DNA of 36,858 bases from Acanthaster planci (lineage: Eukaryota). The translations under genes were made by a program, and so were the position numbers. Location: positions 2,899,825-2,936,682 of the forward strand of contig NW_019091361.1 of the NCBI RefSeq assembly GCF_001949145.1, written 5' to 3'. The notes under the pieces are model-generated. The model had not been told where the DNA came from. It worked only from the letters and a program-made list of their open reading frames with translations, and made no database searches. Positions 3,833-31,855 of the stretch are shown here, piece by piece; the first letter of the stretch is position 1; every line of letters starts with the position of its first letter.

Positions 3833-5023
3833 GCAGTACCTTTGTTTTTATGAATTATAGAGGGCGCTGTTAAAAACAATCATTTTGAATCATCAATCAT
3901 CATTGTCCATTCGCCTCCAGCTCTGATATCGAAAACGCTTTCAGACCCTAGGCTGTTAAAATGACATTTGAGGCCCCGAGCTAGCTAGGCCCAGCTCCGT
4001 TTTTGTCCGTTTTTGTCCTGTCAACCAACAGAATTTATCTTCTTTTGCCAGCGTCTTTGTTGAAGGTTTTTGTTAGCCAACAGAGGGCGCTCTCCCACTT
4101 TCACGGAGGTTGCAGGCCAGTAAATAAACTGCCATACTGTGAAATACCCGAACTTCGAAAAATCAGGAAATTACTCCCGAATTTCCCAGGTGTTCGAGAC
4201 GCACATCAAATAAAATTTTGTTTTTTATTTTCTTTTCAAATTTCCTTTCATTAACCAATGACTTTTGAAGATTTACTTTACCCTAAAATGCAGTCGTGAA
4301 GCCCCTCGCCATTTTGAAATGATCGATGTCCCAACAAGTTGACCACTGGCTTAGCCCCCCCCCCCCACACAATCACACTTTTTTGAAAGGAGGGGGCATG
4401 TCCCCTGTAGGTAATGAGGTGGGGCTTAATGCATCTNGCAGTACCTTTGTTTTTATGAATTATAGAGGGCGCTGTTAAAAACAATCATTTTGAATCATCA
4501 ATCATCATTGGCCATTCGCCTCCAGCTCTGATATCGAAAACGCTTTCAGACCCTAGGCTGTTAAAATGACATTTGAGGCCCCGAGCTAGCTAGGCCCCGC
4601 TCCGTTTTTGTCCTGTCAACCAACAGAATTTATCTTCTTTTGCCAGCGTCTTTGTTGGAGGTTTTTGTTAGCCAACAGAGGGCGCTCTCCCACTTTCACG
4701 GAGGTTGCAGGCCAGTAAATAAACTGCCATACTGTGAAATACCCGAACTTCGAAAAATCAGGAAATTACTCCCGAATTTCCCAGGTGTTCGAGACGCACA
4801 TCAAATAATTTTTTTTTTATTTTCTTTTCAAATTTCCTTTCATTAACCAATGACTTTTGAAGATTTACTTTACCCTAAAATGCAGTCGTGAAGCCCCTCG
4901 CCATTTTGAAATGATCGATGTCCCAACAAGTTGACCACTGGCTTAGCCCCCCCCCACACAATCACACTTTTTTGAAAGGAGGGGGCATGTCCCCTGCAGG
5001 TAATGAGGTGGGGCTTAATGCAT
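3833..5023. repeat. Near-identical ~600-bp direct duplication (3833-4436 / 4438-5023) separated by a single N
   Basis: Both copies start gcagtacctttg and end ggcttaatgcat; they differ by a few substitutions and small indels; N at 4437. Confidence 0.95.
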
Positions 5024-7591: not shown

Positions 7592-10500
7592 TTATTCAGA
7601 GACGGTAAAAATGTGGAATGTTATCATTTCTCCAAAGTCTATTCCTTCTAGATTTTGAACGGAGGCGAGTCCTCCATCACCGAGAGACAAAAAGAGCAGG
7701 GAAGGAACAGGAGCCAACGGCTCTGTAACTCCTCCGCTGAAATGATTGCTCGCTAAGTTGGCTATCTTGACATGACCAAGAGATGACAGCAAGTGAAAAA
7801 TGGCCTTGATATCACTGTCATCCAAACCACAGCCAGCCATAAATAGTCTGCTCAAGGATGGAAAAGGAACGACGTTTATTTCTGACAAACCGTGCAATCT
7901 GTTTGCGTTCAGGACAACAGTATGTAGGTTGGTGGCTTCTTCAAGTAGGGAGAACAGCGTCTCAATGTCATCGGGTGTCAGATTGCATTCGCTCAGATGC
8001 AGTTCACCGAGCGAAAGGACGGGAGTGATCTTGACAGGCAGCAAATCGTGCAAATCGTTCCCCTTCAGAACAACTCTCTCTATGCTGCCTGCTGTTGCTA
8101 GAAGAGAGAAAAGGTGTTCGACGTCGCTGTTTGTCAGACCACATTCGTACAGGTGCAGTTCACGAAGCGAAGGAACAGGGTCGATCTTGACAGGCCGCAA
8201 ACCGTACCAATAATAACTGATTGCTGACCGAGCACCTCTACCTAAGCTTGCCCCCACTGCAAACAGTGAGAAAAACAGAAAGCACAGAAAGGACAAGAAT
8301 AGGGACAGAAAATAGAAAGATGATCCACGTTCTGTCAAGGTTCGATCTTGTGGCTGATGGTTATGGGGCGATGCAGGCTTGATCATGACCGGCAGCAAAC
8401 CGTGCAAATCATTTCCCCTCAGAACACATTTGTCTACACTTCCAGCTTCTTTGAGGAGGGAGAAAAGTTGCTCAACGTCACTTTTTGTCAGACAACATTC
8501 TTGTAGCTGTAGTTCACGAAGAGAAGGAACAGGGGTGATCTTCATGGTCTCTAAACCATGCAAATCGTTTCCATGCAGAACGAGTTCCCTGACGCCGCCC
8601 ACTGCTGCAAGAAGAGAGAAGAGTGGCTCAACGTCACTGTTTGTTAGACCACATTCATGTAGCTCCATTTCACGAAGCGAAGGAACAGACGCGATGCTGA
8701 CATGCTGAAGACTATGCAGGCTGTTTCCCCTCAGAAGAACTACTTTTATGCTACCCAATGCTGCTAGAAGGGAAAACAGCGGCTCAACGTCAGTGCTTGT
8801 CAGCCAACACTCGTACAGGTGCAGTTCACACAACGAAGGAATAGAGGGGATCTGGGCATGATGCAAATTGGAAAACTTGTTTCCCTTCAGAACAACTGTC
8901 TCTATGCTACCCGCTGCTGCAAGGAGGGAGAAAAGTGGTTCAATGTCCCCGTTTGTGAGACAACATTCGTGTAGATGAACTTCAGAGAGTGAGGGAACAG
9001 GGGTGATTTCAACAGGCTGCAAATCATGCAAATCGCTTCCCTTCAGGACGACTGTTTTTACGCTGCCCGCTGCTCCAAGGATAGAGAAAAGGGACTCAAT
9101 GTCACTCCGTCTCAACTCACAACGTTGTAGCTGAATTACACAAAGCGAGGGAACACGGGCGATCGGAGCAGGCTGTAAATCGTGCAAATTGTTGTCCTTT
9201 AGAACGAGCGTGTTTATGCTGCCCACTTCTGCGAGGAGGGAGAAAAGGGGCTCAATGTCAGTGGGTGTCAGACAACAATCATACAGATGAAGCTCACACA
9301 GAGACGAAACACGGGTGATTTTGAAAGCCTGTAAGCCGTGTAAATCATTCTCTTTCAGGACAACTGTCCTGATGGTGCCAACTGTTACGAGGAGGGAGAA
9401 CAGTGGCTGGACGTCACTATTTGTCAGGTTACATTTGTACAGGTGGAGTTCACAGAGTGACGAAACCGGGACGATCTTGACATCTTGCAAACCACTTAAA
9501 TCGCCTCCTATGAGTACAGCTTTCCTGACCCTACCCACTCCTGCAAGAAGAGAGAAAAGGGGCCCGATATCACTGGTTTTCAGGCAACAGTCTTGTAGCT
9601 GCACTTCACAAAGCGAAGGAACTGGACTGATCTGCACAGGCTGCAAACCGTGCAAACTGCCTCCCGATAGACCGACTTTCACTACTCTACCTGCTGCTGC
9701 AAGGAGAGAAAAGAGTGGACCAATGTCAGCGATGGCTAGGTTACATTCTTGTAGCTGGAGTTCATTAAGAGACGGAACGGAATTGATCTTGACAGGCTGG
9801 AAACCGTGGAGATCGTTTCCATGGAGAACAACTGTTTTTACGCTTCCCGCTGCCTCCAGAAGAGAGAAAAGTGGCTCAATACCATTGCTTGTCAAGTTGC
9901 ATTCGTACAAGTGGAGTTCGCAGAGCGAAGGAACAGGTTGGACCTGGCCATGGACAGGCTTCAAACCACTCAAATTACTTTCCGACAGGACTAACTTCCT
10001 CATGCTGCCCACTGCAGCAAGAAGAGAAAACAGTGGCCCCATGTCAGTGTGTGCCAGGTTACATTCATGTAGCTGCAGTTCACAAAGCCCAGGGATAGGG
10101 GGAATCTTGTCACTAATGTCAGGTTGCATTCCGTGAAAATTGCTTCCGGACACAGCAACTTCCTTTATGCTGCCAGCCATTGCGAGGAGAGAAAAGAGTG
10201 GCTCTATATCACTGGTCGTCAGGCTGCATTCTTGTAGCTGCAAGTTACAAAGTGACGGAACTTTGGTGATGCTGATAGGTTGCAACCCGTGCAGATTATT
10301 TCCTTTCAGCAAGCTGTCTTCACACTTCCCGCACCTGCCAGAAAGGAGAAAAGTGGCCCAATGTCACAGCATGTCAGACTACACTCTTGTAGCTGTACTT
10401 CGCAAAGCGAAGGAACTGGAGTGAGGTTGTCGGCCTTCAAATCGTGCAAATCGTTTCCATGCAAAATAACTTTCTGTATGGTGTTGGCTGCTGCTAGGAG

Positions 10501-10719
10501 GGAAAAAAGTGGTGCAATGTCAGTGCTCGTCAGATTGCATTCGTGAAGCTGTAGCTCAGTAAGGGAAGGAACCGGGGTAATACCGAAGGGTTGCAAACCA
10601 TGCAAATCGCTTCCCGAAAGAATAACTTTCGTTATGCTGGCCGCTGCTTCTAGGAAGCAGAAAAGTGGCTTGATGTCCCTGTTAGTCAGATTACATTCGT
10701 GCAGCTGTAGTGCACACAG
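7592..10719 (-). CDS. NLR terminal exon part 2: LRR array (ORFs 10306..10767 and 7592..10312, joined across frameshifts)
   Basis: The 52-aa repeat SLCELQLHECxLTxxDIEPLFSLLAAAGS-IKTVVLKGNDLHGLQPxxITPVP continues in register across both frame changes; stop TAA ends at 7592. Confidence 0.9.
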
Positions 10720-13700
10720 GAAGAAACAGGGGTGAACTTGTCTACCTGGAAACGACGGAAGCTGCATCCCGACAGAGCAACTGTCTCGACGCTGCCCGCT
10801 GCTTTAAGAAGGGAGAAGAGTGGCTTTATGTCAGAATTGGTTAGGCCACATTCTTGAAGCTGCAGATCAGAAAGCAAAGGAGCAGGTTCGATCTTGACAG
10901 GTTCCAGGCCGCGTAAATTGTTTCCCTTCAGGAAGACCTTCTTGATGCTGCCTGCTCCTGTAAGAAGGGAGAAAAGGGGCCCAATTTCACTGTATGATAG
11001 ATTGCATTCATACAGGTGTAGTTCACAAAGCGATGGAAGAGGGGTGATCTTGGCAGGCTGCAAACGTTGCAAATCGTTTTCGTTGAGAACCACTACCTGT
11101 ATGTTGCCCGTTGCTGCAAGGAGAGAGAACACCTGTTCAATGTCACTCTTCGTCAAATTGCATTCGTACAGGTACAGTTCTCGGAGAGAAGGCACAGAGG
11201 TGATCTGGTCAGGCTGCAAACCGTGCAAATCGTTGCCCTTTAGGACGAGCGTCTTTATGCTGGCTGCTGCCGCAAGGAGGGAGAAAATTGGCTCGATGTC
11301 AGTTTTTGTCAGACTGCACTCATGAAGCTGCAGCTCGCAAAGCGACGGAATAGGGCTGATCTTCACAGCCTGCAAACCGTGCAGATCGTTATCCTTCAAA
11401 AGAACTGTCTTTATGCTGCCAGCTGATGAAAGAAGGGACAAGAGTGACTCGATGTCTTTGCTTTTCATGCCAGTGTCCGCAAGGGCCAATACAGTCAAGC
11501 TCATAATTGGTCCAGGTGTCACCATCTGTTCAGATAGCAGTTCGAATGAAATGGTGTTCTTGATGACCAAGGTACTTATTTTTGACTCTTTGTAGGATAA
11601 CATGTCAAAAAGTTGCAAGATGTTCCAGTCACCGGTTCGCACATCTAATCTCTTCATGTGCTTTATCATGCCTTGGGAATCATCGACAAAGTTACTCCAA
11701 TGCACGTTGGCAAGGTTAAGGGTCAAAGAGATGTTACACTCTATTTCTTTCACTATGTCTTTTAACAGTTTTAAATGTTCCAAACTGTCGCACTTAGCTT
11801 TGACACTGTTTATGTCCAGAGCTTTACGTTTAGACCCAGTTTGAACAAGGTAGTGCGCAGCCACGAGATCCTCCCCTTGGATCTCGAATGTAAACTTAAT
11901 GTTACCAGTCCCAACTATTTCGTCTACAAGGGAGTCTAATTGAGCTTCGAATAAGAGCAATGTCGAAATTCGGTGTAATGATTCCTTCATTTTGTCTTGC
12001 CCTAAAAGTCCATCAATTTCTCGTATTATTGTCTGGGCAGTGTTCTTGTTCAGTCCACAGCAGAAGCGGAGAAGAAATTCAACACTTTCAACGTCGCCAC
12101 TAAATATGCTTGACAATACATTGTGAAACTCTTTCTTGTCAGATCTTGACAAGCTATCGAGGTAAACTGCAGCGCAGTATTCCTGGAAAGTTTTGTGGAG
12201 GAACGAAAAGAGAGTGACGCTTGTGAGACCATACACAGTTTCTGTTTTCGACAGCAAGCCAATTTTACAACCCTTTTCGAAAATATCACTGTCTTCTCTA
12301 TTGATCTCTGAGGCCATGAAATAAAGTTTTGGTCCATCTGGATCGAGCAAACCCTCAAGAGCAAGCCGACCAAGGGCAAAAATGTCTGTCTTGGTGTCAT
12401 GTGCGTAAGTGTTTGCTTGGCTGTCTGTTTCTTTGCTGTCCACACGCTGGAAAAGATGCTCAATTTTGTGACTGAAGAGTTTCGTTATTTGATGGGGCAA
12501 TTTTCCTTCTTCCGCCCACGTGAAGCACATCAACCAAAGAAACAAGGGGATTTCCGCCAAACTACGGAATGTGTTAGACGCATTGACCGTATCAAGAAAG
12601 CTCTTTTGGCTTTGTTTGGAAAAATCTGTCAAGTACTTTCCTACGTATTTTTCCCTGTCTTTCTCATCGAAGCCTGCCACATGAACTTTTGTGAAGTGTT
12701 CATGCATTGTCAGCAATTCATTTGCTGTCTTTTGTCTACTCGTTACCACAATTTTACACGACTTCAGTGATTTGAACGACAGCATATCGCTCAAGTTAAT
12801 TTCATCCTTGCGCTGTTTTGTGTGTGTCAACCTTTGCAGAGAAATTTCGTCTGCGCCATCAAGAAGGATCAGCACGCTCTTTTGGTTATTCCGAATATAC
12901 TTCTCCAAGTCTTCTTTCTCAAATCTACCTTCTGTAAGAATTTGCGAAAAAATGGCATCCACGACGTCAAAATTCTTACCCATTCGATTAACTTCGATGA
13001 GAAAGACAAGTTTGTAATCCTTCAGACCAAACTTTGTCCCAGGTTGGGATTGGTTAGTTTGTTGCGTCCCATTTGTCTTTATTTCCACCCAATCATACAC
13101 AATCTTTTTAAGCAGCGTGGTTTTGCCGTAACCTGCCTCAGCTGTGGCTAATATCCGATTTGTTTTGAGGGTAAGCATGTCCTCGTATGAATCAAGGGGT
13201 ACGTTTTGGAAGAGAAACCCCGTCTCTTCTTCCACTTTTGACACTGAGCGACCAGGGGTACCTCTTTGCGACTTGCCTTTCAGATGCCCCACTTTCATGG
13301 TGGCAGCCGGGTGTATCTTGAACTCTGATGAGCAGCTAGGAGCTGCCAGGTTGGTTTCTTCAAGAAGCTGTTGGTTTACATAAAGTCTACCAATCTCCAC
13401 GGACGTGCCTCTCTTCGTCGGGTGTGTAGTGACTTTCAGGGTCTGCTGGTAGTGTGCTGTTAGTTCCTCCGCACACTGTTCAACGTCAAAATGTTCCCCT
13501 GCAACGCCTGGGTTAAAAGGAGGTTCTCTGTGGGTCAACAACTGCAAAAATCCTAATTTCTGTCGAAGAACTCGCTTCAATCAAAAAACGTTTCCAATCG
13601 TGTTGGTGTGGTTTACGTTGTAAATTCAAGTCTGATAAATGTTTTTCCAAAATGTGAACTCCTTTAATTAGCTCTTTGTAACCACCCGAATAAAAATTGG

Positions 13701-16498
13701 GTGCAGCATAAATGCAATTATAAAAGGGAATTTACATGTACATGTAGTTTGTGTTGAAAGGTCATGCGAAAAATTGTGGAAAATTGCGGATCTAAGCATA
13801 CTTGCGATCTGTAGGCACATCCTTGATATTAAATAGGAATTAAATAATATCACGCACGAGATTCCCGAATGCATAATAAACATTTCAGAATTGTGTTTTA
13901 GGCACGGTTTCAGATATAAAATTTTGTAGCATTTTGATGCAATATTATACCTGGAACTTTTGATGCCAAATCAGCACGGTGCGTTTTTCTCAAAGCATTT
14001 TTCAAAGTCTGGGGTGCCTCTTCGGGGTTGTCCTGCTTCTTGTACCACTTATCTAGCATCTTCAAGCTCTGCCTGACTATATTCCCCTTATGGCCCTCTT
14101 CGAATTGCTCGACTTGTGTGTTATCAAAGTCTAAGTTGATGGCGAGCGACACCCAGTCTCTTCCGAGTTTCTCTGACAGTTCCAAAAAGTATCCGCTTGC
14201 AAACTGTTCTTCTGAAATGTTGAAAATATCTTTGTGAAGAAATCTACAAGAACAAACTTTTTATATGTGGAACAGCATTTTGAGTTGCAAATAAATTTGA
14301 GCCTTCTCATCAGACACTCGTCTGTTATTATCTTGGACATTAATTTTCTGCAATTCTCTTCTTCGACGTGTCAGTATGAAAACTCGTTGACGTCTCTATA
14401 CGCTGGATGCACAATGGAAAATGCTGATTGAAACGTGCATTTTTCAAACTCCATAAGTATCCCTACTTTCCTGGACAACTGAGGGCCCTGTTGTTGGCTT
14501 CAGGGGAAGACATGGTTCAGTGCAATTTTATTTCTATTCCATTTATAGGCCAAGCATTTACCGGTACTCACTGAAATAATTTTTACTTGGATGCTCGAAC
14601 TTTAGGCCAGGAAAACATAAAAAATGCCGCAACTTTATTTGCACGAGTTGACATCACAGTTTTGATCATGAATATGGAAATACTCACTTGCACGAAAACA
14701 AACCAGGCAGAAAAACCCCTTCCGAAGTCGTGACACAAAACTGGAAATGGATTTAACTGAGAAACAAAGGTGCATTTCAAGGTTTGTGTGAAATGAATTC
14801 TATTGCAGCTTCCCTTAAACAAAGATTAAGAGTTCCATTACAATACTTACTTTCAGGCGCACCACCCAATAGACCACCTGCTCTTATCTCGATGTTCTGG
14901 TCTTGTTGTATGCCTTGATCGGTAAGAGACAGCGAGTCACACAGCTGCAAATTAGCCATTGTCGGTTCTTAATGTTTAATTTTTCCCTTCATGATTTGCA
15001 ATTATTGCCAACAACTTTCAAGTCATCAATGTTATTTGACATGAAATGCAGGTAAGATATCTTTAAATGGGATGCATGTTTTTCGGGGTCTCTTTTAAAA
15101 ACAGACTCCAAAGACAGACAAATAGTAAGAAACGTACTGAGCCTAAGGTAACAACATGTTGTTACATGGTAACAACATGTTGTTACAGAGCCATGTTGCA
15201 ACATGGCTCTGAACACTTGTTTAAATAACATTTACATTTACAGCAACAGCTGTGCTTTCAAAACTTTGTATTTACTAACTCTGATAATGGATGATAACTT
15301 TCTTCGGTGGTCGTAAGTAAAGACTTACCAACAAATTTCTCTGGATGAAAAGATGTTGTGTTTGTGGCTGGATACCACTCTTGTTCTTGATTAACTCCTT
15401 CAAGGATGAAACTGATGTCTTTTGATCTAGTTGGAGGCAAAGTGTCCTTGATAAAAAGGAACCTCGGACAAAAACTTGCAACTTCTCCTTCCTTTCATGA
15501 AGACTGTAATACAAACAACAGAAATGTGATTCAGTAAAGCTTGAAGTTACTTCATGAATTAGGTTTTTATTTAAATTGTCAGGTTAAGCCTGAGTCTGAT
15601 AATTGGAACACGTATGAGGAGTTACAGTACTAGTATAAGTGTCAAGCACAGTGGACTTTATACCTTGAATACGTACTACTAGAAGTGTAGACAGTCGTAC
15701 TGAAAATAATCAAATACTTACATAACGACTCGAACTGAAATTGGAGAGCGATTTTCTTTTGAAAATACAGGGACATTGCATTTTTCGAAACTCTCTGATT
15801 TCTACCAATAGTCAAATTCACGACTAGTTTCCATTTAACCACACCGTTTAATTTGTACTCGATCGTGTTGCATTTTAGCGTATGTCGGAGCTGAGACAAT
15901 CACTGGTGAGCTGAAAATGACCATATTCAAATTCTGATTTGATAATTGGAAACGAAAAGTAAAAGTTTGCACTGATATGCACAGATGATTCATAGTAATA
16001 AATCTATGATTGCGACGAACCACTAGAATATACATGTACATTAATATGGGATCAGTTTTAAGCATAACTTGGTTTAACAAAAACACACTCAGATCTAATC
16101 GAGATGCAACAACAATAAACATTTATATTATCAGAATGCTGGTTGTTAAATATTAACTTGACCTTTACCTGTATCAAACTTGATAACAGGATAAGCAAAA
16201 TTCAATAATGTACTTGCTAATACCTCTCCGTTTCAGCTTTAGTGATCGTTTGATCATGATTCGGGGGTTTGCTCAGTTCACACTGAGGTGTGGATGCTCT
16301 TTTTGGGTGGGGCACAAGTTCTTTGTCGTCGTCTGTGAGTCTTGATGAGGCTTTGATTGGAAAGACAGACAGGAATGCTGCTTTCCGGCCATGTTTAGCT
16401 TTCATCTTCTTGCTGATGAGTTTCGCCCTTGGGTGGTCGCATACCGCACCAGTAGTAATTCTATCTTTATCCCACTGACCAAGGCTGACCTGCTCCAT
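7592..16498 (-). CDS. NLR-like receptor (UBL-DEATH-NACHT-LRR), 5 coding exons, ~2240 aa, with two frameshifts in the LRR region as assembled
   Basis: Phase-compatible GT-AG exons 16498-16224, 15503-15329, 14944-14851, 14211-13951 and 13507-7592. NACHT motifs: Walker A AEAGYGKTT, Walker B VLILLDGADE, sensor-1 KIVVTSR, IPLFL, and FSFLHKTFQEYCAA. Single-base deletions near 10720 and 10311 break the frame (assembly error or pseudogenisation). Confidence 0.88.
7650..11500 (-). repeat. Coding tandem repeat, 156-nt unit (paired 29+23 aa LRRs), ~24-25 diverged copies
   Basis: The motif ccgtgcaratcgtt recurs at 156-nt spacing (e.g. 11221 and 11377). Confidence 0.9.
10720..13507 (-). CDS. NLR terminal exon part 1: NACHT NTPase, helical domains and first LRRs
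   Basis: Acceptor ccttttaacccag|gc in phase 1; ORF 10686..13580 carries all NACHT motifs. Confidence 0.92.
13951..14211 (-). CDS. NLR coding exon 4: DEATH domain
   Basis: Phase 1-1 exon; LSEKLGRDWVSLAINLDF...QSLKMLDKW...TLKNALRKTHRADLA matches the DEATH-fold pattern (LG.DW..LA..L, ML..W, L..AL....R.DLA). Confidence 0.88.
14851..14944 (-). CDS. NLR coding exon 3: C-terminal part of ubiquitin-like domain ending LLGG
   Basis: ctaatttgcag| acceptor (phase 0) and |gtaagt donor (phase 1); encodes LCDSLSLTDQGIQQDQNIEIRAGGLLGGAPE. Confidence 0.8.
15148..15211. repeat. Cluster of three perfect palindromes
   Basis: gtaacaacatgttgttac twice (15148-15165, 15169-15186), then cagagccatgttgcaacatggctctg (15186-15211). 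Confidence 0.9.
15329..15503 (-). CDS. NLR coding exon 2: N-terminal part of ubiquitin-like domain
   Basis: tattacag| acceptor and |gtaagt donor; encodes LQVFVRGSFLSRTLCLQLDQKTSVSSLKELIKNKSGIQPQTQHLFIQRNLL, which aligns by eye to ubiquitin residues 1-50. Confidence 0.8.
16224..16498 (-). CDS. NLR coding exon 1 (basic, low-complexity leader MEQVSLG...TKAETE)
   Basis: ATG in a strong context (aaaacgATGg); upstream acceptor tttttttag ends at 16547; donor GAG|gtatt, phase 2, matches the next exon. Confidence 0.65.
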
Positions 16499-17777: not shown

Positions 17778-19309
17778 CCGTTTACCTCCGTAAATCGCAA
17801 CCCAACAGGGATATGCCCATTAGTTGTTCAAACCCTTAAGCTGGTTGGGTACGTTGCTCATCCCCAGGAACTCGTCATTTCCTTGTTTGACCTGACACAA
17901 ACCGTAGTCGATGACGGCCTCTGGCTGGAGGAGGAATCCAGTTGGTACTGAAATGTCATTCATCTTTTCATTTTAATCCGATGAGAATTTGTACGCTGAA
18001 GCAAGAAGCAGACGTGCATGTTCCATTGTCTTTTGCAAACAAGGCAGTATGCATTATGTTTCGGCCACGTCTGTCGCACGTACACACAGTTAATATTAAC
18101 TTTGACCTTCCAATGGTCACGTGAGGTGCAACCAACATGCCTCTTTTGCATTGTATTTCTTCTACAACCCTGTTTACCCAAACCTTTGGAATATAAAATG
18201 TCTTTTCGTTTCGTGCTCGCTGATCCAAGGAGTTCAACTATGTTAATAGTATTGATGGTTGGGACTTTGCTCTCAAAGTATTTGTGATCATGCATACATA
18301 ATCAAGTGTATAAATAGCACAGTGGACCCGACTGTGGTGTACGGAATAATAAATAAAGTACGGGACGTTTAACCCAGGAAAGGTTTTGAACTGAAACGTT
18401 CAAAATACATAGCAACTTCCGCCACAGTCACGTGATCACATGTCTACCACCCCCCTAATTGTCATTGCCAGTTCTTATCGACATTCACTCGACTCTTGTT
18501 TTGTCATAGGGGCCTATTTACCTTGGACAGTTCCGAGCTGAAGTTTCACAAATGTCCCAAGCACTGCACACCTAGAGATTTCTGAGGGGGTCCATCCATA
18601 TCCCTAGCCGTAGGCCTATATAAATTATGTGAGGTTGTACTGCTACATGTATTTCCAATGGGTGTACAAGAACAAGACAAGCGTGACGGAATCATGATAA
18701 AGGTCTGGGACGACCGCTTAATAATCCTACAATTGGGTCTCTATTTTAAAAAAAGGGGACCGAAAAGGACACACCGTTAGGGAAGCTTTCACACTGATAA
18801 GATGTTGTGATAAACAAACCACATAAATATCGTATAAACTGAAAGGATGTAAAACCCTAGCCTTCCACCGAACGACCGAGAAACTTTACTTTTAACGCCA
18901 TCCCATCAGGGGTATCGCCCGAGGTATATGAGAAAATGAGAGGGTCCTACACCATAAAACGGCAAATAAATAAAAGGAAATCTTATTACAAAGCAGTGCA
19001 TGCCCAAATACGTACAGCACTGGTAATTATGACTACATATCTAACGTAAAATCTGACATGCGCGAGTCGCAGAATCCCAATGATGGGCCTACGGCAAAGT
19101 TCCTATTGCTGAATATTTGTATGTTGACAATGATTTGCACAGTACATGTATTTACATCTCCGTCTCGTAGAAGACAACCAACCTCTTCTTTGGCATGGAA
19201 GATGATTCAGTGAAAGATTTTTTATTAAATCTCCATGGTTAGACGAATTGACTCTAACCCCATCCCCACAGATCTTGCAATTCGCATCGCCGTGAACCGA
19301 GTATCAGGT

Positions 19310-23400: not shown

Positions 23401-26400
23401 CCCCACAGGTGTCCTTTTTAAACCCTGTATGCGTCCTTTTGTCAAGAATGAAAAATACCAGGCTGTATTGTGAACACATGCCATGTGGCATCCCTTGGTA
23501 TTAAATGGATAGAAATGGTTTTGACACTTTCAGTGCATCGCAGGATCGGGTAAAAAAAAACCTGCGTCTAAAGCATGAAATTGTTGGGGATGTGAACCAG
23601 TCCAACGTCACTTAATATCACACTTCAGAATATGTCTCAAGTACATGCCCATCATATCACTGATTCACCCGAATGCAAGAATCAATTTTAATTTGAAATT
23701 AAAAAAGAGATCGTTTGAAAGACCTTTTTGCTAGCTGTACAATTTTGATTATGAATAATCTTATTCCAGATTTTCATTCCTATACTGTGTGAGGAGAAGA
23801 TGACTTGATTTTTATTAATGAGATGGAAACTGGTGTTTTGTAGTTGCACTTTTCCCACGGAATGATGCGTAAAATGCACTGCTTGTTTGTTATCCAGTCC
23901 CGGACATGCAGATTATGAAAATAGTAAATTAGGCCTATCTATTACTGTGGTGATTCTACTACAATGAAAAGTTCCAGTTCCTGAAAAACACCCTGAAAGT
24001 TCTTAAGATCTCTATTTTGATTTTCGTAGGATGTATGAAATCCGGCGCCCTGTTCTAATTGTCAGTGATCCTGACATCATCAAGAACGTACTTATCAAGA
24101 ATTTTAACAGTTTCTGCAACCGGCGGGTGAGACACTAGCTGTACACATGATTTCATATTGGAACTCCTCCCTGTTTCCGATCGTCTGCTATGACAGCGTT
24201 CAATGATTGTGGTCATTAATGTCAATTCAAATCCTGGTTGGTTTCAAGGAAATATTAACTGAGCGAGTGACGAGAAATAACGGATTCTATAGCTAGAGTT
24301 GGCACCATGCCTGCGGGAGAATGCCTCACTGGAGGCCCTTAAATGTGTTTTATTCTAGTTGTTGCTGGCATTCTTTTCATGAGTAGTTTTAAGTTCCAGT
24401 GGGGGTTGACATTTGATACAGTGGTGTGGCCCCACCCTCGCCCCGCCAGTTACACCATTGGATTCTTGTGACAGGAAGTTTGCAATTCTGAAGAATTTAT
24501 CCGAGAATTTAACTTAATTGCCAAAAATACACCAATGTTTCAAAAATGCAACATAAACGATGAATCAGAGAAGAGAATAATTATATAGTAATCAGCGAAA
24601 TTGGCAAAATATGCATGACTTACTGTGTCCAAACAATTTTTTTCTGTAACTGTGATGTATGATATCACAGTTTGCTAAAGAATAGGGAATTCTCATAAGC
24701 ATAAAAAACACAAAAGGCAGCAAAATACCCTTTTAAATAGTAAAACAAAAGTTGAAAGCAACAACAGACTCCTGGTGTTGGTTTATAGAATCAGTAGAAT
24801 ATTGGGAGTAGGTCTGTCCACATGCTCCTCTATTTACCTTTATTGCGCTTTAACCTGTTGTCACACATAATCGAATGTTGCCTTATAAAGGTATGCTATA
24901 ATGATGAGGGGATGATGAAAAAAACCACCTGAAAATATATTGTCATCATTGAGCGAAACAGCTGAAGATCTTCAAAGGAAAAGGCATTGAAAGGTTTATT
25001 AGTTTGAGAGGGAAACCCTGTAAGAATGCACACAAAAAATCATACGGCTATGCAAGAAATCGAACCTTCGACCAATGAGAAGCCTTGGTTTTCTGCTCTT
25101 CTGAACGTATAAGCACGTGTTTACCCAACCAGCCAATATTAGTACGTTGGATGCTCGCCGTACGTTGTTACTTTACTCTATTTCTGAGCAGGTAATGCCT
25201 CTCCTTCCAGCGCCCATGAAGAGGGGACTGAATTTGCTGCAAAACGATGAATGGAAAGAAGTACGCAACATCCTTACCCCAACCTTCAGTGCAGCGAAGA
25301 TGAAACAGGTACATTTTATTTATTTTTGGCATACCCTCCGCAAGGTTATACATTTGTTTTGTTTTGTTTTTTGTTTTTTTCAATAGGCGACTGTTGGCGA
25401 AACATTGGTCGTCAAGACCCAAAGGTGCCCAGCTGTAAGCAGACGTTGGAGGTGTTTAGCCAGATCCTCACAAGTCTGAATCAAACACCACCCAGTCAAA
25501 ACGTCAGTGTTTAAGCTATCATCAGAGAATTTTTCCTCTCTGCAGTAGAATTGCAGTCTCGGTGATATATAGCCGTTCTCTAGTCTTGTGAAACCTGGTT
25601 TATAGTCAGAAACTGAAGAGCTACTGATTATCCACAAACTTAAGTTTGTGTCTCTCTCTTAGGAACTGCTTCTTCGTTAATGTCGAGAAACGAAACGAAA
25701 AAAAACACCGCAGGATGGTACACGGAAAAAGTTTTGTACACACAAGTAGAAGGCCTATACTTAGCATTTTTCTGAATCAGAACAAGTTAATAATGAACAT
25801 TGTCAAACAAAATTGGCCTATTGGAGTGACATGAGAATTGGACTGATCAATTTTATGGGTTCCTTTTTTCTTGCGAAAGCTGCCATGCAATTTACTTAAG
25901 ATTAGCTGGAGGACATTCAGCTGGACTGCCAGCGTTAACACACATCGATGATGTGATTGTCTTGTTTTCGTTTTTAGATGTCGTTTGTGATGAATGAGTG
26001 TTGTGATAGGCTGGTGTCCTATTTGGACAAAGCAAGGGAAGGCGGAATTCCTGTTGAATGCCGGCAGTAAGTGCGATCTTTATTTTTGAATTTTAGTATC
26101 TTGGGGGTGGTGGCTTTGCATTCATGATGCACTATATAAGCATTATTGAGACATTCCTTATGGCAGATTTGAAAAATTGTTACTTGTGCATAAATGTCTA
26201 GATTGAACTGAAAGGTATGCCCTCTGTAATAAGGGAAAGAATATACACAATTTCCATGGAAACCTCTTGTCCGAAACATTTTCTTGCAGTGTGTTTGGGG
26301 GCTACACCATGGATGTCATTGCAAGATGTGGTTTTGGTCTTCGTGCAGACTCTTACGACAAAGACGATCCTTTCGTGAGGAATGGCAGCAAAATGTTTGA

Positions 26401-29400
26401 CTTCAAAGTGGAATCTCTTGTTTCACTTCTGTTGGGTAAATAGCCAAGGGGGGTGAATACGACACAAAGGCGCAGCCGATTGCGCAGTAGACACAGCAGG
26501 CTCCCAACCTCGAGCCTCCAAAATATCTGGAAGTCTGCAAAAAGTTTGAGCGCCTGCCATAAGGTGAACTGGCCTTCTTGTCAATAAGGCAGAGTGTTCC
26601 ACACAGAGCACATAATTTGGGGGAAACTGTCATAATCCGGCCGTGTCAATATTTGTCATTTTTTTGTCATTGAAATATCTTGTTGACCCTGGGTGCGGGT
26701 TCCGATGACGTATTTCATTTTTACTGCTTCGTGTTCGCCAAATACGTCATTGATGTATTTTCCACTGGCATAATGTGCATTTACCTGTTCGTGTATATTC
26801 ATGTATAACTGTACACGTAATACATGAGAAAACATACACTGCGAATCAGGTTGACCTTGCTGTGTGCACATTTTGGATTAAAAACTCTCAGCATTAATTT
26901 TCTTTTTGTTTGCAGTAATATTTCCAGTTTTGGCCACACCCCTCACGAAACTGACGAAATATAGCTTAATTGATCAGTCAGCCGTGGATTTTTTCGTGGA
27001 TGTCACGAAGGAAGTTGTCAATTTGCGGAGGCGTGGAGAGCGTGAGTCTAAGGTGAGATGGGACCCTCCCAAACTCTTTTTTTTCGAGAACATTCTTTTC
27101 AAAATCCATAAAATTTATGACAATCTCTGTTAATTCTTCTTTTTCGTCCTTATTTTACTGGCTGTATAGACTCTGTGATTTCTGTCTTGGATGGCATCAC
27201 GCCATTACTAATTAATGTGAAAATGTGCATTATCATACGTCATACGTTTTTAAGTAAAAAGGCACCGAAACCCCCTTAAACTGTCACTGGAAAAGTTGTC
27301 TATCAGTTTTAATGAGACATAAAGGAAGAACTGCCGTAGTAAATTACACTATGCCATATGCACTATGGCTGGCCCATGTTATATAACGTCAATACGGTCG
27401 TCTTCAATGTTATGGTTATTGTTGTTATCCATTTGTGATTTATCGCTCGTTTTGATTTCGATTTTGTCGTTGTCGATGACATTTTGGTATGTTCATTTTG
27501 GTATAACACGCTTGAACGCAGACTAGGCCCATAAGACAGTCCGTATTTCTTTGCCACCATTATTCTTTTTATTTTTTAGAACATCGATGTGCTTCAACTG
27601 CTCCTTAATGCCCACAATGATCCCGAGTATGACCAGGGAGAGTCGGCGTCCAGACTCAACGGTCGAGAAAATGTCGTCGTCCGGCGTAAGCCGCTGTCCA
27701 CCACTGATGTCCTGGCTCAGGTACGTCCTGGACCTCGTTGGTCTTATAAAAGAATCGCTGCTGTCCACACAGGGACGCCATGGATGGCATGTATGTGTTA
27801 TGTACGTTTCATTTTTGCTGGACCACAGCAAAGGACTGCCTACAGACAAGATCACAGATTTTGTTTTTGTATATCTTATAATAGTCGGCTGTATTACAGG
27901 TGTTTAGACTCTTTCTTTCGACTATTTCGTGCATGCTTGCGATATACTTAGATCGACCTTATAGATTTCGTCTTAGAGTCAGCTCAGTGGTATTCCAAAT
28001 GTTCTTGAATCAGGTCTCAGCTTGGAGTAAAAATGTATCGAGAGAGTGATCTTCCTCAATCTCTACAATATAAAGAAAATACAGACTCAACACATTTATC
28101 AATACCTATCATTAACGTTTCATCAGACATCAATTCCTATGGCACTTTAGTTCTCACGATCACAACGCCAGATTACCTACAATTTTTCCACTTCAGTACC
28201 TTAATGTCAGACAACCCACTTACCATCTTTAGACGTAGTAATATGTTTTACATTTTTTAAATCAAGATATTTATTTATTTTCTTAAGGCCCTTAACATGT
28301 CTCGTCTTCTTTACTGGCCCTTGTCTCCTTTTATCGAGTATCCCATCTTAAGCGTCATTCTATACAGGGTATTTAAAAAGTAAACATTTAGAAAATTGTC
28401 TACAAAATAGAAGTTTTATTAGTTTCCAGAAATTTTTTATCATATATTGATAGACCAAGGTTTTTTGCTTTGTTTGCCATCACATCAATGATCAGCCGTT
28501 CTGCATGAGTGAGCACTGCAGCATTGATTTACAATTACAGAAAGTGGTTGTAAATTTGGGGCCTGTGCTTTGTTTCTTTCAAATTCCCAGAGAAATGTTG
28601 TTGACCCTTTGCCCTCCTCAAAATATTAACCCAGATTTATCCTCATTACAATAATGACAACAGCATGGCGCAAAAAGGCAATTGTTCATAGCAATGGATC
28701 TTTCACCATACAGGAATGCAAGTTCATGAGGGTTTCATGTCACACATGCGCATCTTAGTCCTCTACGTGGCCTCCATATCTCTTCTCACACACTTTAGCA
28801 TCAATCTCAGCAATAGCTTACCCAGAAGGATGAAACCCTCTTATGTAACACTCACGGCTATGTGTACTTCAGCATCAATCTCAGCAGTAGCTTACCCAGA
28901 AGGATGAAACCCTCTTATGTAACACTCACGGCTATGTGCACTTCAGCATCAACCACAGCAGTAGCTTACCCAGAAGGATGAAACCCTCTTATGTAACACT
29001 CACGGCTATGTGCACTTCAGCATCAGTCTCAGCAGTAGCTTACCCAGAAGGATGAAACCCTCTTATGTAACACTCACGGCTATGTGCACTTCAGCATCAA
29101 CCTCAGCAGTAGCTTACCCAGAAGGATGAAACCCTCTTATGTAACACTCACGGCTATGTGCACGTTCAAATCACTGAAAATTCGTGTGTCAAGTTTTCAT
29201 TTCGACGGACCATTGACTTTTGTTGCCACTGTGATTTTGAGGGCAAATTGCCTTTGAGTAGTGTTTATGACGAGTCTATCATGAACTCATGGTTGTGTAA
29301 AATGGGGATTGCTAGACAGTGAAATTGAAATAAGTTTCGATGTATTGGATGTTGCCAAGCATTCCAAACACAATTATCTTTCGGCGCTTTCTGCTTTGTG

Positions 29401-31855
29401 CCACATGCTAATTACAATTCTTTTTTGTTACCAGGCATTGACATTTTTCTCGGCCGGATACGAGACAACCAATACCGTGCTAAGTTTGACTGCATACCTA
29501 CTCGCTATGAACCAAGACGTCCAAGAGAAGCTGTACGCCGAGATCGATAGCCTCACTCCAACAAGAAACGACGTTACCTACGGCGTCATCCACAATATGG
29601 TGTACTTGGACATGGTGATAAGCGAGTCTCTCCGCCTGTTTCCACCAGTTGTCCTGTAAGCGGCCACAAGTTAATTCTTCTGGTTTTGAAATTAAAGCCC
29701 CCTTTTGTGATTCTATTTCACGTTCTTCCCACTTTAAGCAAGCACAACAGACAGAGTCACAGAGGGTCAGTCAGGATGGTCATCGTGCAGTTTAATTAAT
29801 TTATTTACATGTTCTTACCATTATCATCTACCAATAATTTGAGCACAATGGAACATTGAAAACAGCACTCGAAAGTATGGGCGCGTTCTAGTAGTAATCC
29901 ATATGACATGTCACTGGCATACAATTTACATAATGCCTGCGCCGGTTTTTGGTTTGTACCTTATGTTGTGAAATATCAATTCAGAGACAAGTATTTTCAT
30001 CATAACTTGAAAATGACAATGCAGTACCAATTATTTTACTAGAACCCTGGAAATTGTTCTCTAATGTTTCAGTGAACCATTAATTTTTCAGCTTTTATTT
30101 TGCTTTTTCGAATCTGTATCGTGCAACCTTCTCAGTTTTCGTACTAATGTGAATGTTCATTTTCGTGTGCAAAACTGTTATGTCATCGAAGGGACTGAAT
30201 CTGATTTGTACGCCAAAGCTGCTGGAAGTTTTGATGCGGTATCTTGCTTTTCCTTCCCTTTTTTTACTGACGGCCAACCACAGTTGTGGCAGCTACTTGT
30301 AGGAAACCTGTGACTGTGACGACAAAAACACAGACCCTATATTGGCCTACCAAAAGTTAATGCAAAGTATAAACATGGCACAAACACTTTAGATGGAAGC
30401 ACTTTGTCAAAAGAAAGATTTATACGACTGATGAGATTTTTATATTTGTTTTACCTACAACTTGGCTCCATTCAGAATTTGAATATGTTTATTTAATGCC
30501 TGACAACCCATGTTCTCTCTATCGTCCTTAAAAGGAAAAAATTTAGTGTCTTTCATGAATGAATTTGTTTTAAAATGCTCAGAATGTTGCTCTCACAATA
30601 ATGGTTCAACTTTTGTTCTCAGTCTCGAACGCGTCTGCAATGAAACAACACGATACAACGGTTTGACCATTGAAAAGGGACTGGTTCTGTTCATCAGCAC
30701 CTGGTCTATTCATCACAGCGAAGACTACTGGCCGAATCCCACCCAATTTGATCCTGAGCGGTAAAAAGTTTGAACTTTGAAGAAATTAAAGTTTGGAGCT
30801 GATTTCATCAAAGCTAGAATTTTGATAAAAAGAGACAGATTTGACAAATCCCCCTAGGAGTTGGAATTCTTGGTCTTTTGAAAAGTGAAGATGGTACACA
30901 CATCATGATTAAAATGAAACCTTCCTCACAAGTTTTGTTTTCGAAATGCAGGTTCAATGCTGATAACAAAGCCAACATCAAGCCTTATACATACATGCCG
31001 TTTGGCCTTGGACCCCGTAATTGCATCGCGATGCGGTTTGCCTTACTGGAGGCCAAAATAGCACTAGTTCGAGTTTTGCAGCAATTTCGCTTTGATGTTT
31101 GCCAGAAAACTCAGGTGAGCACAGTTAAACTGTTGTCCAACCCAACTGGGCTCAATGTCACGGAGCTGCTTAAAAGTTAGCTTAAAAGTTGTGCTAACTT
31201 AAGCAGAAAAATTGGCTATAACCCCAGCACTATTTCATTGGGGTGCTGGGTGTGACCATTGATCTCCATCATAAAGACCGGATAGGATATTGCGCGTTGT
31301 TTGGGCACAAAATGGCTGGCGAATAATGGACGTCACTAAGTTTAAGCATATATTTAACTTCAAGGTTAGCATGCCTTTGGCTGTGCTTACAGTCTCCGTG
31401 AAATACGCGGTGCCTCTTTATAAAAGCGTTAAATCGTGTGCTAAGTAGCGCCGTGATATTGGGCCCTGAAAATCAGTGTCACATCCAATATTCTGCTGTA
31501 CTTCTTGTTCTATTGGCCGCAGACTATCTTTCGCTCACCAGTTGATAGAATGAATAAGCCAGTGACATAAATCAACAAAGTTATTTAATCAGGTGTTTAC
31601 GCATAGATGGCAGAGTAATCCACAAAAGCAAGCTTGACGAGACATGTCGCTTACCCGCTCTGGTTGCGGGTGTATGCATACTGACAATGGCTAAGTACCT
31701 ATACTGTCATTCCATGCTTATTGATGAACGAAAAATTCTTTGAAGGTGTCGTGAAATCAATTTGGGAATTTCTTTTCTAGATCCCGCCAACTCTTAAGAA
31801 ATTTGGATTGATTTCTCCTGAGAGTGTGATGCTGAGTGTCATTCCAAGGAACTAG
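20365..31855 (+). CDS. Cytochrome P450, clan 3 (CYP3A/CYP5A-like), 13 exons, 517 aa
   Basis: GT-AG exons 20365-20444, 22370-22466, 22751-22803, 24030-24126, 25192-25308, 25978-26066, 26290-26435, 26916-27052, 27580-27720, 29435-29655, 30623-30760, 30952-31114 and 31781-31855 splice into a 1554-nt open frame. N-terminal membrane anchor, WKEVR (WxxxR), AGYETT, ESLR (ExxR), FDPERF and heme motif [10 protein letters not shown] are present. Confidence 0.95.
20620..21010 (-). mobile_element. Possible highly decayed non-LTR retrotransposon fragment in CYP intron 1
   Basis: Minus-strand peptides [12 protein letters not shown] and EEGIPYD resemble LINE ORF2 pre-RT motifs; weak. Confidence 0.3.
21283..21397. 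repeat. Two abutting inverted repeats (hairpins) in CYP intron 1
   Basis: aatacctctttgtagca/tgctacaaagaggtatt (perfect 17-bp arms), then tgacggcaatcaactatccgacaatcattt/aaatgattgccggatggttgattacgtca. Confidence 0.85.
22370..22466 (+). CDS. CYP exon 2
   Basis: [25 protein letters not shown]; tttgcag| acceptor and |gtacgt donor. Confidence 0.88.
22751..22803 (+). CDS. CYP exon 3
   Basis: 53 nt, [18 protein letters not shown]; ttcttcag| and |gtaagg. Confidence 0.88.
24030..24126 (+). CDS. CYP exon 4
   Basis: [32 protein letters not shown]; canonical splice sites. Confidence 0.93.
25192..25308 (+). CDS. CYP exon 5
   Basis: [20 protein letters not shown]; canonical splice sites. Confidence 0.9.
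25978..26066 (+). CDS. CYP exon 6
   Basis: 89 nt, [18 protein letters not shown]; tttttag| and |gtaagt. Confidence 0.9.
26290..26435 (+). CDS. CYP exon 7
   Basis: [16 protein letters not shown]...DDPFV; canonical splice sites. Confidence 0.92.
26916..27052 (+). CDS. CYP exon 8
   Basis: IFPVLATPL...[16 protein letters not shown]; canonical splice sites. Confidence 0.9.
27580..27720 (+). CDS. CYP exon 9
   Basis: [12 protein letters not shown]...[10 protein letters not shown]; canonical splice sites. Confidence 0.9.
28790..29163 (+). repeat. 74-bp minisatellite, ~5 copies, in CYP intron 9
   Basis: agcttacccagaaggatgaaaccctcttatgtaacactcacggctatgtg recurs at 28815, 28889, 28963, 29037 and 29111. 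Confidence 0.97.
29435..29655 (+). CDS. CYP exon 10 (I-helix to K-helix)
   Basis: [12 protein letters not shown]...[15 protein letters not shown]. Confidence 0.95.
30623..30760 (+). CDS. CYP exon 11
   Basis: LERVCNETT...[12 protein letters not shown]. Confidence 0.94.
30952..31114 (+). CDS. CYP exon 12 (heme-binding cysteine)
   Basis: [22 protein letters not shown]. Confidence 0.96.
31146..31468. mobile_element. MITE with ~27-bp terminal inverted repeats in CYP intron 12
   Basis: ctgggctcaatgtcacggagctgctta versus the reverse complement of the right end, cagggcccaatatcacggcgctactta. Confidence 0.75.
31781..31855 (+). CDS. CYP exon 13 (terminal)
   Basis: ttttctag| [24 protein letters not shown]. 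Confidence 0.88.
   Translation: MPPTLKKFGLISPESVMLSVIPRN

Follow-up and report, generated by a model that had tools for sequence, protein, structure and literature searches.

To our knowledge, what triggers and controls the large families of nucleotide-binding leucine-rich repeat receptors (NLRs) of invertebrate deuterostomes is largely unknown. A gene for one such receptor, on the minus strand of a 36,858-nucleotide stretch of the Acanthaster planci genome (NW_019091361.1, positions 2,899,825 to 2,936,682 of the forward strand; the whole stretch is called the window below, and coordinates are counted from its first letter), raises the question of what purpose could be served by a ubiquitin-like domain (UBL) ending in Leu-Leu-Gly-Gly and placed directly ahead of the DEATH domain. 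An earlier note, made from the letters of the window alone, had proposed that this domain is spliced onto a receptor with DEATH, NACHT and leucine-rich repeat (LRR) parts, and that it might be a removable cap or a decoy. The UBL-DEATH-NACHT-LRR architecture is real, expressed and family-wide, and the answer that we tentatively prefer is a cap that a host enzyme would take off at the Gly-Gly (GG).

Splicing, expression and fold of the ubiquitin-like domain

The spliced frame runs through 16498-16224, 15503-15329, 14944-14851, 14211-13951 and 13507-10686 and comprises 1,208 codons, interrupted by four introns, each of the GT-AG type and in phases 2, 0, 1 and 1, respectively. Its product is identical to P0001, an NCBI gene model for an NLRC4-like protein of A. 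planci, in which the UBL exons are already present; ubiquitin is missing from the precomputed Pfam list of this model because the match to PF00240 (E value, 2.7e-05) reaches 24.3 bits and the gathering cut-off is 25.4. Raw RNA reads carried the three joints that tie the UBL exons to the receptor, with 13 reads for 15329/14944, 14 for 14851/14211, and 13 for 13951/13507 (recorded as 13506/13950, cut +1). All three joints were found in three of the four raw RNA runs; the fourth, X16, does not cover the gene, its depth being confined to 3 of 30 bins that lie on the intronic repeat or next to it. No joint skipping the UBL exons was present among the joints listed (threshold of 3 reads). A contig of 7,205 nt guessed to be RNA, X1, contained the 5' exon, the start-codon exon, both UBL exons, the DEATH exon and the last exon in one piece, and another contig, X8, spans introns and does not include the UBL joints. 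For the 16224/15503 junction, the basis is the single contig X1 together with the NCBI model, and it is not among the listed raw-read joints. The intron between the UBL and DEATH exons also holds a short interspersed repeat (14645-14686), to which hundreds of reads from every run matched partially.

These data agree with the earlier note in that two UBL exons are joined in frame to the DEATH exon and then to NACHT-LRR. The domain does lie directly ahead of DEATH, but it is not N-terminal, as an upstream exon (16546-16224, supported by X1 and by the identity with P0001) had been overlooked. This exon carries the ATG at 16498 and codons 1 to 91 of a leader with a family motif, and the UBL is internal, with 99 residues ahead of it. 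The next exon, 15329-15503, encodes the end of the leader and the first part of the UBL, whose residue L100 begins at 15481, and on its own it matched Pfam ubiquitin with an E value of 8e-05. The exon at 14851-14944 adds the second part, the tail and the start of a linker. In all, the UBL comprises 79 amino acids, L100 to G178, and its L-x-G-G motif (L175-L176-G177-G178) is encoded, according to the spliced translation and to its conservation, by 14861-14872, with a predicted cut between G178 and A179 (14861/14860).

The DEATH-domain exon follows (13951-14211, phase 1-1), and then a large last exon (7592-13507, delimited from open reading frames [ORFs], Pfam and X1) with the NACHT domain (residues 392-563, 12624-13139), helical domains and LRRs. 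Pfam scores were 45.8 bits on the DEATH exon and 40.2 bits in P0001 for Death (cut-off, 22.6), 70 bits for NACHT PF05729 (cut-off, 26.7) and 36.5 for LRR_8 (cut-off, 27). The same DEATH, NACHT and LRR, all above Pfam cut-offs here, make up the echinoderm NLRs that the available text of PMC8662601 describes for A. planci and Patiria miniata; the added feature is the cassette of leader, UBL and L-x-G-G ahead of DEATH, which that text does not mention.

A ubiquitin fold was predicted for residues 99 to 172 with AlphaFold2 and Foldseek, in accordance with the claim of a 79-residue domain of this type. When residues 1 to 184 were modelled from a 6-sequence alignment, the predicted local distance difference test score (pLDDT) was 86 to 94 at positions 101 to 170, and the beta-grasp order was that of ubiquitin, strand-strand-helix-strand-strand. 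Tail residues 177 to 179 scored below 50 and lay outside the fold, and the leader (residues ~1 to 90) was of low confidence (pLDDT, 37 to 61), with disorder predicted except in the family motif. The best ten Foldseek matches in the PDB were all ubiquitin or ubiquitin variants, with target TM-scores of 0.81 to 0.92 and root mean square deviations of 1.3 to 2.4 A against single-ubiquitin chains, and a UBL query of the ESM Atlas gave leads only (0.80 to 0.82). An AlphaFold2 model of a 579-residue relative was poor overall (predicted TM-score, 0.33) and uninformative on domain contacts.

At the sequence level, PF00240 exceeded its cut-off in two of five close relatives (28.4 and 26.7 bits), and the family profile matched ubiquitin at about 1e-9 per domain. 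The UBL is ~35% identical to ubiquitin, and the ubiquitin core residues Q2, K27, Q41, L43 and L50 are unchanged in the family. Among the residues used in recognition, L8 is altered to S or P, I44 to F or Y, V70 to R, K48 to N, and K63 to Q, and in the tail R72 is altered to Gly and R74 mostly to L or M; the L8-I44-V70 patch, R72, R74, K48 and K63 all have established functional roles in ubiquitin. The UBL tail is also 1 to 3 residues longer than that of ubiquitin, with a variable length. A role as a proteasome tag, another suggestion of the earlier note, is disfavoured because the equivalents of V70, K48 and K63 are changed. Descent from a ubiquitin-eS31 fusion was considered as well, because single-domain PDB matches to such fusions extend beyond the GG, and left unproven, the additional match being low-complexity lysine-rich sequence.

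Distribution of the cassette and retention of its tail

The family set consisted of 43 proteins from two profile searches; both discovery profiles included the tail, so that GG-less relatives are under-sampled. The 42 named proteins come from four sea stars, A. planci, P. miniata, Asterias rubens and A. amurensis, and some paralogues are automatically labelled "ubiquitin-like domain-containing" in databases. The widest profile search of representatives contributed 18 new family members among the 150 matches listed, and one protein that it returned, P0113, was a degenerate polyubiquitin. No family member was found outside the sea stars, a weak test, as this search was swamped by polyubiquitin-like repeats, and the UBL profile had no match in two Amphiura and one Saccoglossus NACHT homologues. 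A single-sequence UBL search had returned only its own protein among 43 candidates; it was too insensitive, and profiles later found the family.

The arrangements observed include UBL-DEATH-NACHT-LRR, UBL-DEATH-UBL-DEATH-NACHT, UBL-NACHT without a detected DEATH domain, and three proteins named SAMD9-like by NCBI (P0129, P0138 and P0214), in which the same cassette precedes lysine-rich sequence. The SAMD9 membership of these three follows their NCBI names plus weak SAM, STAND and TPR matches, and ubiquitin is not mentioned in the main text of a SAMD9 architecture survey (PMC5445408). That NLRs and SAMD9-like proteins alike bear the cassette suggests a general control module among sea-star immune proteins of the STAND (signal transduction ATPases with numerous domains) class. 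Near the N terminus, 37 of the 43 proteins share the basic leader motif (Y/D)HS-x2-K-x4-K-x3-K-x2-R-x2-AF, of ~45 residues (16498-16350 in the window), which matched no Pfam family and gave no usable ESM Atlas match. A NACHT tree was built from gene models, 24 with a UBL and 9 without (unspliced ENA calls and truncated NACHTs being excluded); on it, the cassette occurred in two separate clades, each with a support of 100 and each holding a UBL-less member, and at least three gains or losses were forced on the tree.

To examine the tail, 56 UBL copies were located with a profile that excluded it. L-x-G-G was found in 45 of the 56, with x being L in 26, M in 13, R in 3, and P, I and K in one each. 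Its presence followed position, with 42 of 43 last-or-only copies having it (that is, 42 of the 43 proteins) versus 3 of 13 earlier copies, in concordance with the expectation that the GG would be conserved in paralogues. The residue after the GG was never Pro (0 of 45), which blocks deubiquitinase cleavage; it was G in 20 copies, A in 16, T in 6, and D, V and R in one each, and in several members a lysine-rich stretch comes after the GG.

A tree built without the tail from 53 copies (3 weak ones were dropped) placed nine GG-less copies in one clade (support, 92/88) nested among GG copies, and thus a single loss of the GG accounts for them. Eight of the nine are the upstream member of a tandem pair in which the downstream member keeps the GG; the ninth, in P0175, is the sole exception among the proteins, and its longer cluster-mate P0202 has a GG copy. 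P0047, P0051, P0054 and P0202 are tandem UBL-DEATH-UBL-DEATH forms with the GG kept in the second UBL only; one cut there would thus release the cap along with an entire DEATH domain.

The 44 GG copies in the tree shared a mean identity of 48% and fell into 19 clusters at 70%. Parsimony counted 6 changes at x, 11 to 12 at the two residues before G-L and 8 to 14 just after the GG, compared with a core median of 6; 5 of 71 core columns were unchanged, and the zero change at L, G and G holds by definition of the class. The NACHT domain was also used alone as the query and gave 39 homologues, 8 of which bear a UBL, all ending in GLLGG; many of the 31 without one are unspliced ORF calls, unable to show upstream exons. 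The non-circular support for the apparent retention of the tail is formed by these 8 of 8 copies and the single loss. Folding does not explain the conservation of the tail, because the tail lies outside the fold.

Proposed removal of the cassette and competing explanations

Taking all explanations together, cleavage at the GG by some enzyme is predicted and appears probable. The one that we tentatively place first is that the cassette is a cap taken off by a protease of the host with Gly-Gly specificity, be it a deubiquitinase or a relative of one; of the cap or decoy proposed earlier, it is the cap that has gained from the fold, the splicing and the GG conservation. The first 178 residues, leader and ubiquitin fold ending in L-L-G-G, would form one removable cassette, and a cut after G178 would leave a DEATH-NACHT-LRR receptor with A179 as its new N terminus. 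What suggests a cap is that an unstructured, conserved L-x-G-G adjoins a ubiquitin fold and is never followed by Pro, which is the signature of fusions cut at GG. The tail would have been kept because the active site of the enzyme reads it, and the cutter would be the host's own and probably selective, since the canonical ubiquitin surface is changed. Removal may license or tune the receptor, as for SDE2, FUBI-eS30 and TUG, and the diGly C-degron pathway would then dispose of the released piece with its GG end. The action is unlikely to be DEATH-specific, because the cassette also precedes proteins without a detected DEATH domain; the SAMD9-like proteins are among these, and uncapping DEATH is no longer tenable as its general purpose.

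Precedents for such processing were taken from the available portions of the papers cited here. SDE2 is cut by USP5, and removal of its UBL frees the functional part (PMC13572447); FUBI-eS30 is cut by USP36 (PMC8354635); and FAU, SDE2, TUG and USP1 are processed at an internal diGly, with the GG-ending products being cleared through KLHDC2 (PMC8013793). Like the sea-star UBL, SDE2/Sde2, FUBI-eS30 (FAU) and TUG combine a ubiquitin fold of divergent surface with a Gly-Gly that is conserved and lies within a longer protein, and the internal diGly of SDE2, FAU, TUG and USP1 is cut by host deubiquitinases or by autocleavage, the cutters being selective. As in SDE2 and FUBI, the diGly of the sea-star family is conserved, directly follows the fold and precedes a residue other than Pro; unlike in them, the UBL is not at the extreme N terminus, and for a non-terminal diGly the precedent is USP1, whose autocleavage releases its N-terminal domain (PMC8013793). 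The sea-star proteins differ from all of these in having an immune STAND ATPase as the partner, a 99-residue leader, a repetition of the arrangement over a lineage-specific gene family, and a cleavage that is only predicted. The family architecture joins two known kinds of protein, and its mechanism is one that we infer. A conserved, predicted-cleavable cap gives a precise handle on a whole NLR subfamily, and, if it is cut by the host, deubiquitinase-mediated maturation as in SDE2, FUBI and TUG would extend to immune receptors.

Several observations weigh against a cap removed in this way. A tail of variable length, 1 to 3 residues longer than that of ubiquitin, is hard to reconcile with an enzyme that recognizes fold and tail at a set spacing, and R72 is Gly and R74 mostly Leu or Met. 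Many members are paralogues or orthologues, and not independent (the 19 clusters mentioned above), and the unchanged L, G and G are definitional, the discovery profiles having held the tail. Close relatives without the cassette exist (e.g., P0010 and P0018), and it is therefore dispensable for this NACHT type. In addition, invariance does not reveal whether the site is cut by the host, cut by a pathogen or read without being cut, and cleavage after the GG is a prediction from sequence.

A somewhat doubtful alternative, retaining the idea of cutting, is that the portable cassette of leader motif, UBL and L-x-G-G on NLRs and SAMD9-like STAND proteins acts as a sensor of deubiquitinase activity, the receptor being switched on by pathogen cutting or by interference with the host cutter. 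If true, this would be an animal immune sensor with a built-in ubiquitin decoy, working without a FIIND or functional degradation.

A pathogen tripwire, in which the UBL would be a decoy ignored by host enzymes and cut by microbial deubiquitinases or LxGG proteases to turn the receptor on, was the idea of the earlier note, and we consider it unlikely. Its L-x-G-G agrees with the motif of coronaviral papain-like proteases in the available text of PMC10126577, housekeeping enzymes could fail to act on a domain that has lost R72, R74 and V70 and has a longer tail, and the family occurs only in sea stars among the sequences sampled, with identifiable partners that are mostly of immune type. Sequence variation in RNA was also compatible with it. 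Differences were taken from 40 of 71 rows for raw reads and 40 of 195 rows for contigs. Of the 40 raw-read rows, 14 were excluded, namely 3 in introns, 3 lying within the 5' untranslated exon or upstream of it, and 8 that cluster in 3 reads with a poor match; 11 untranslated rows of the contig list were excluded too. Among the differences listed, which include reads that may stem from paralogues, amino-acid changes made up 8 of 11 in UBL plus DEATH (4 of 7 in the UBL) versus 0 of 15 in the NACHT region, codons 328 to 854 (Fisher p, 1e-4), and 18 of 29 in the LRR ORF; none touched LLGG. The pattern hints that the N-terminal domains may vary more freely but is not a test of selection; relaxed constraint accounts for it equally well.

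The analogy with NLRP1 and CARD8 that had been drawn for the tripwire covers the NLR type of the sensor, the candidate protease site close to the N terminus and the disordered N-terminal stretch. Here, in contrast, the effector domain stands right behind the site, and the site is an invariant part of a folded ubiquitin mimic whose flanks and surface vary, whereas known tripwire regions evolve rapidly (PMC8591160, available text). Pfam detected neither a FIIND nor a C-terminal CARD in P0001 or in the LRR ORF, so the release mechanism of NLRP1 and CARD8 is absent, and the analogy fails. Pathogen enzymes that recognize the fold would moreover find little to attract them in the eroded surface. If the cutter is nevertheless microbial, the cassette would open a route to effector-triggered immunity that is new and would offer a design for protease sensors that could be engineered.

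A module that stays attached, with UBL and tail binding a partner (deubiquitinase, E1-like reader or adaptor) or their own receptor, has in our estimation a comparably small chance of being correct. According to the available text of PMC13572447, ubiquitin-like domains that are integral to a protein mostly remain a stable part of it; in addition, the tail length is variable, the copies lacking the GG survive as a clade whose core is kept, and it would be surprising for a piece destined only for disposal to retain its leader motif in 37 of 43 proteins. However, pure binding poorly explains why an unstructured L-x-G-G should be invariant, with x left free and Pro absent from the next position, and the hydrophobic patch that proteasome receptors use has changed (V70 to R, L8 to P or S).

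Quite improbable is a modifier precursor, in which the released leader-UBL-GG piece would be the active product, conjugated to targets like ISG15. The intact diGly and the conserved leader motif would suit this, as would P0045, a 146-residue model consisting of leader, UBL, GG and just 9 more residues, but P0045 is possibly a fragmentary gene model, Gly stands in place of R72, and the tail exceeds that of ubiquitin in length. The UBL shares with ISG15 and the ubiquitin-ribosomal protein fusions the beta-grasp fold and the L-x-G-G tail, and differs from them in the equivalents of V70, R72, R74, K48 and K63 and in its 1 to 3 extra residues. A vestige, that is, a captured ubiquitin gene fragment whose tail persists without function, would fit the ~35% identity and the absence from close relatives and is disfavoured as very improbable, given that 53 copies show one loss on a tree whose core length is ~8 changes per site, while adjacent positions of the tail have changed 6 to 14 times.

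No title or abstract opening describing a UBL-DEATH-NACHT-LRR architecture was found in a search in which subscription work, including the original sea-urchin and coral NLR surveys, lay mostly outside the scope, and supplementary domain tables may list it. PMC8662601 contains the word ubiquitin once, outside its available passages, and its available supplement does not contain it; the available texts of PMC3879445 and PMC4083563 and the available main text of PMC8260672 contain no mention, that of PMC8913654 two unrelated ones, and that of PMC3710099 sacsin only. Ubiquitin is listed among the effector domains of metazoan TRADD-N proteins in the available part of PMC8195603.

Remaining features of the gene and the window

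The NACHT domain contains a Walker A motif (AEAGYGKT) and a Walker B motif (LLDGADE). In the former, Ala occupies what we take to be the place of the usual first P-loop Gly, and the same Ala is found in the Patiria and Asterias relatives. FIIND matches in two Asterias relatives (P0222 and P0223) were rejected as artefacts of the LRR repeats, with 0 passing stretches and scores inside LRR units.

Two one-base frameshifts, at 10718 and 10311, affect the last exon, and the protein has 1,208 residues as the window reads versus 2,240 in the form of contig X1. At 10311, the extra base was present in all four data sets (contigs X1, X5 and X8, and X19 in 3 of 3 reads), and this frameshift is likely an assembly error. 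At 10718, it was present only in X1 and X8, and X5 and X19 (0 of 11 reads) agreed with the window, which suggests that an allele giving the shorter protein, 1,208 instead of 2,240 residues, is segregating. A hydrophobic stretch rich in Phe and Leu (~8200-8350) breaks the LRR array and is contiguous in X1. At the other end of the gene, the 5' untranslated exon occupies 17786-17891 on the minus strand as far as X1 reaches and may extend further.

Elsewhere in the window, a multi-exon cytochrome P450 gene lies on the plus strand at 25105-31180, two ORF pieces of which match PF00067 with 70.9 and 63.6 bits, and two near-identical stretches ~590 bases apart (3985-4254 and 4577-4846), with near-identical ORFs of 89 amino acids, represent a local duplication.

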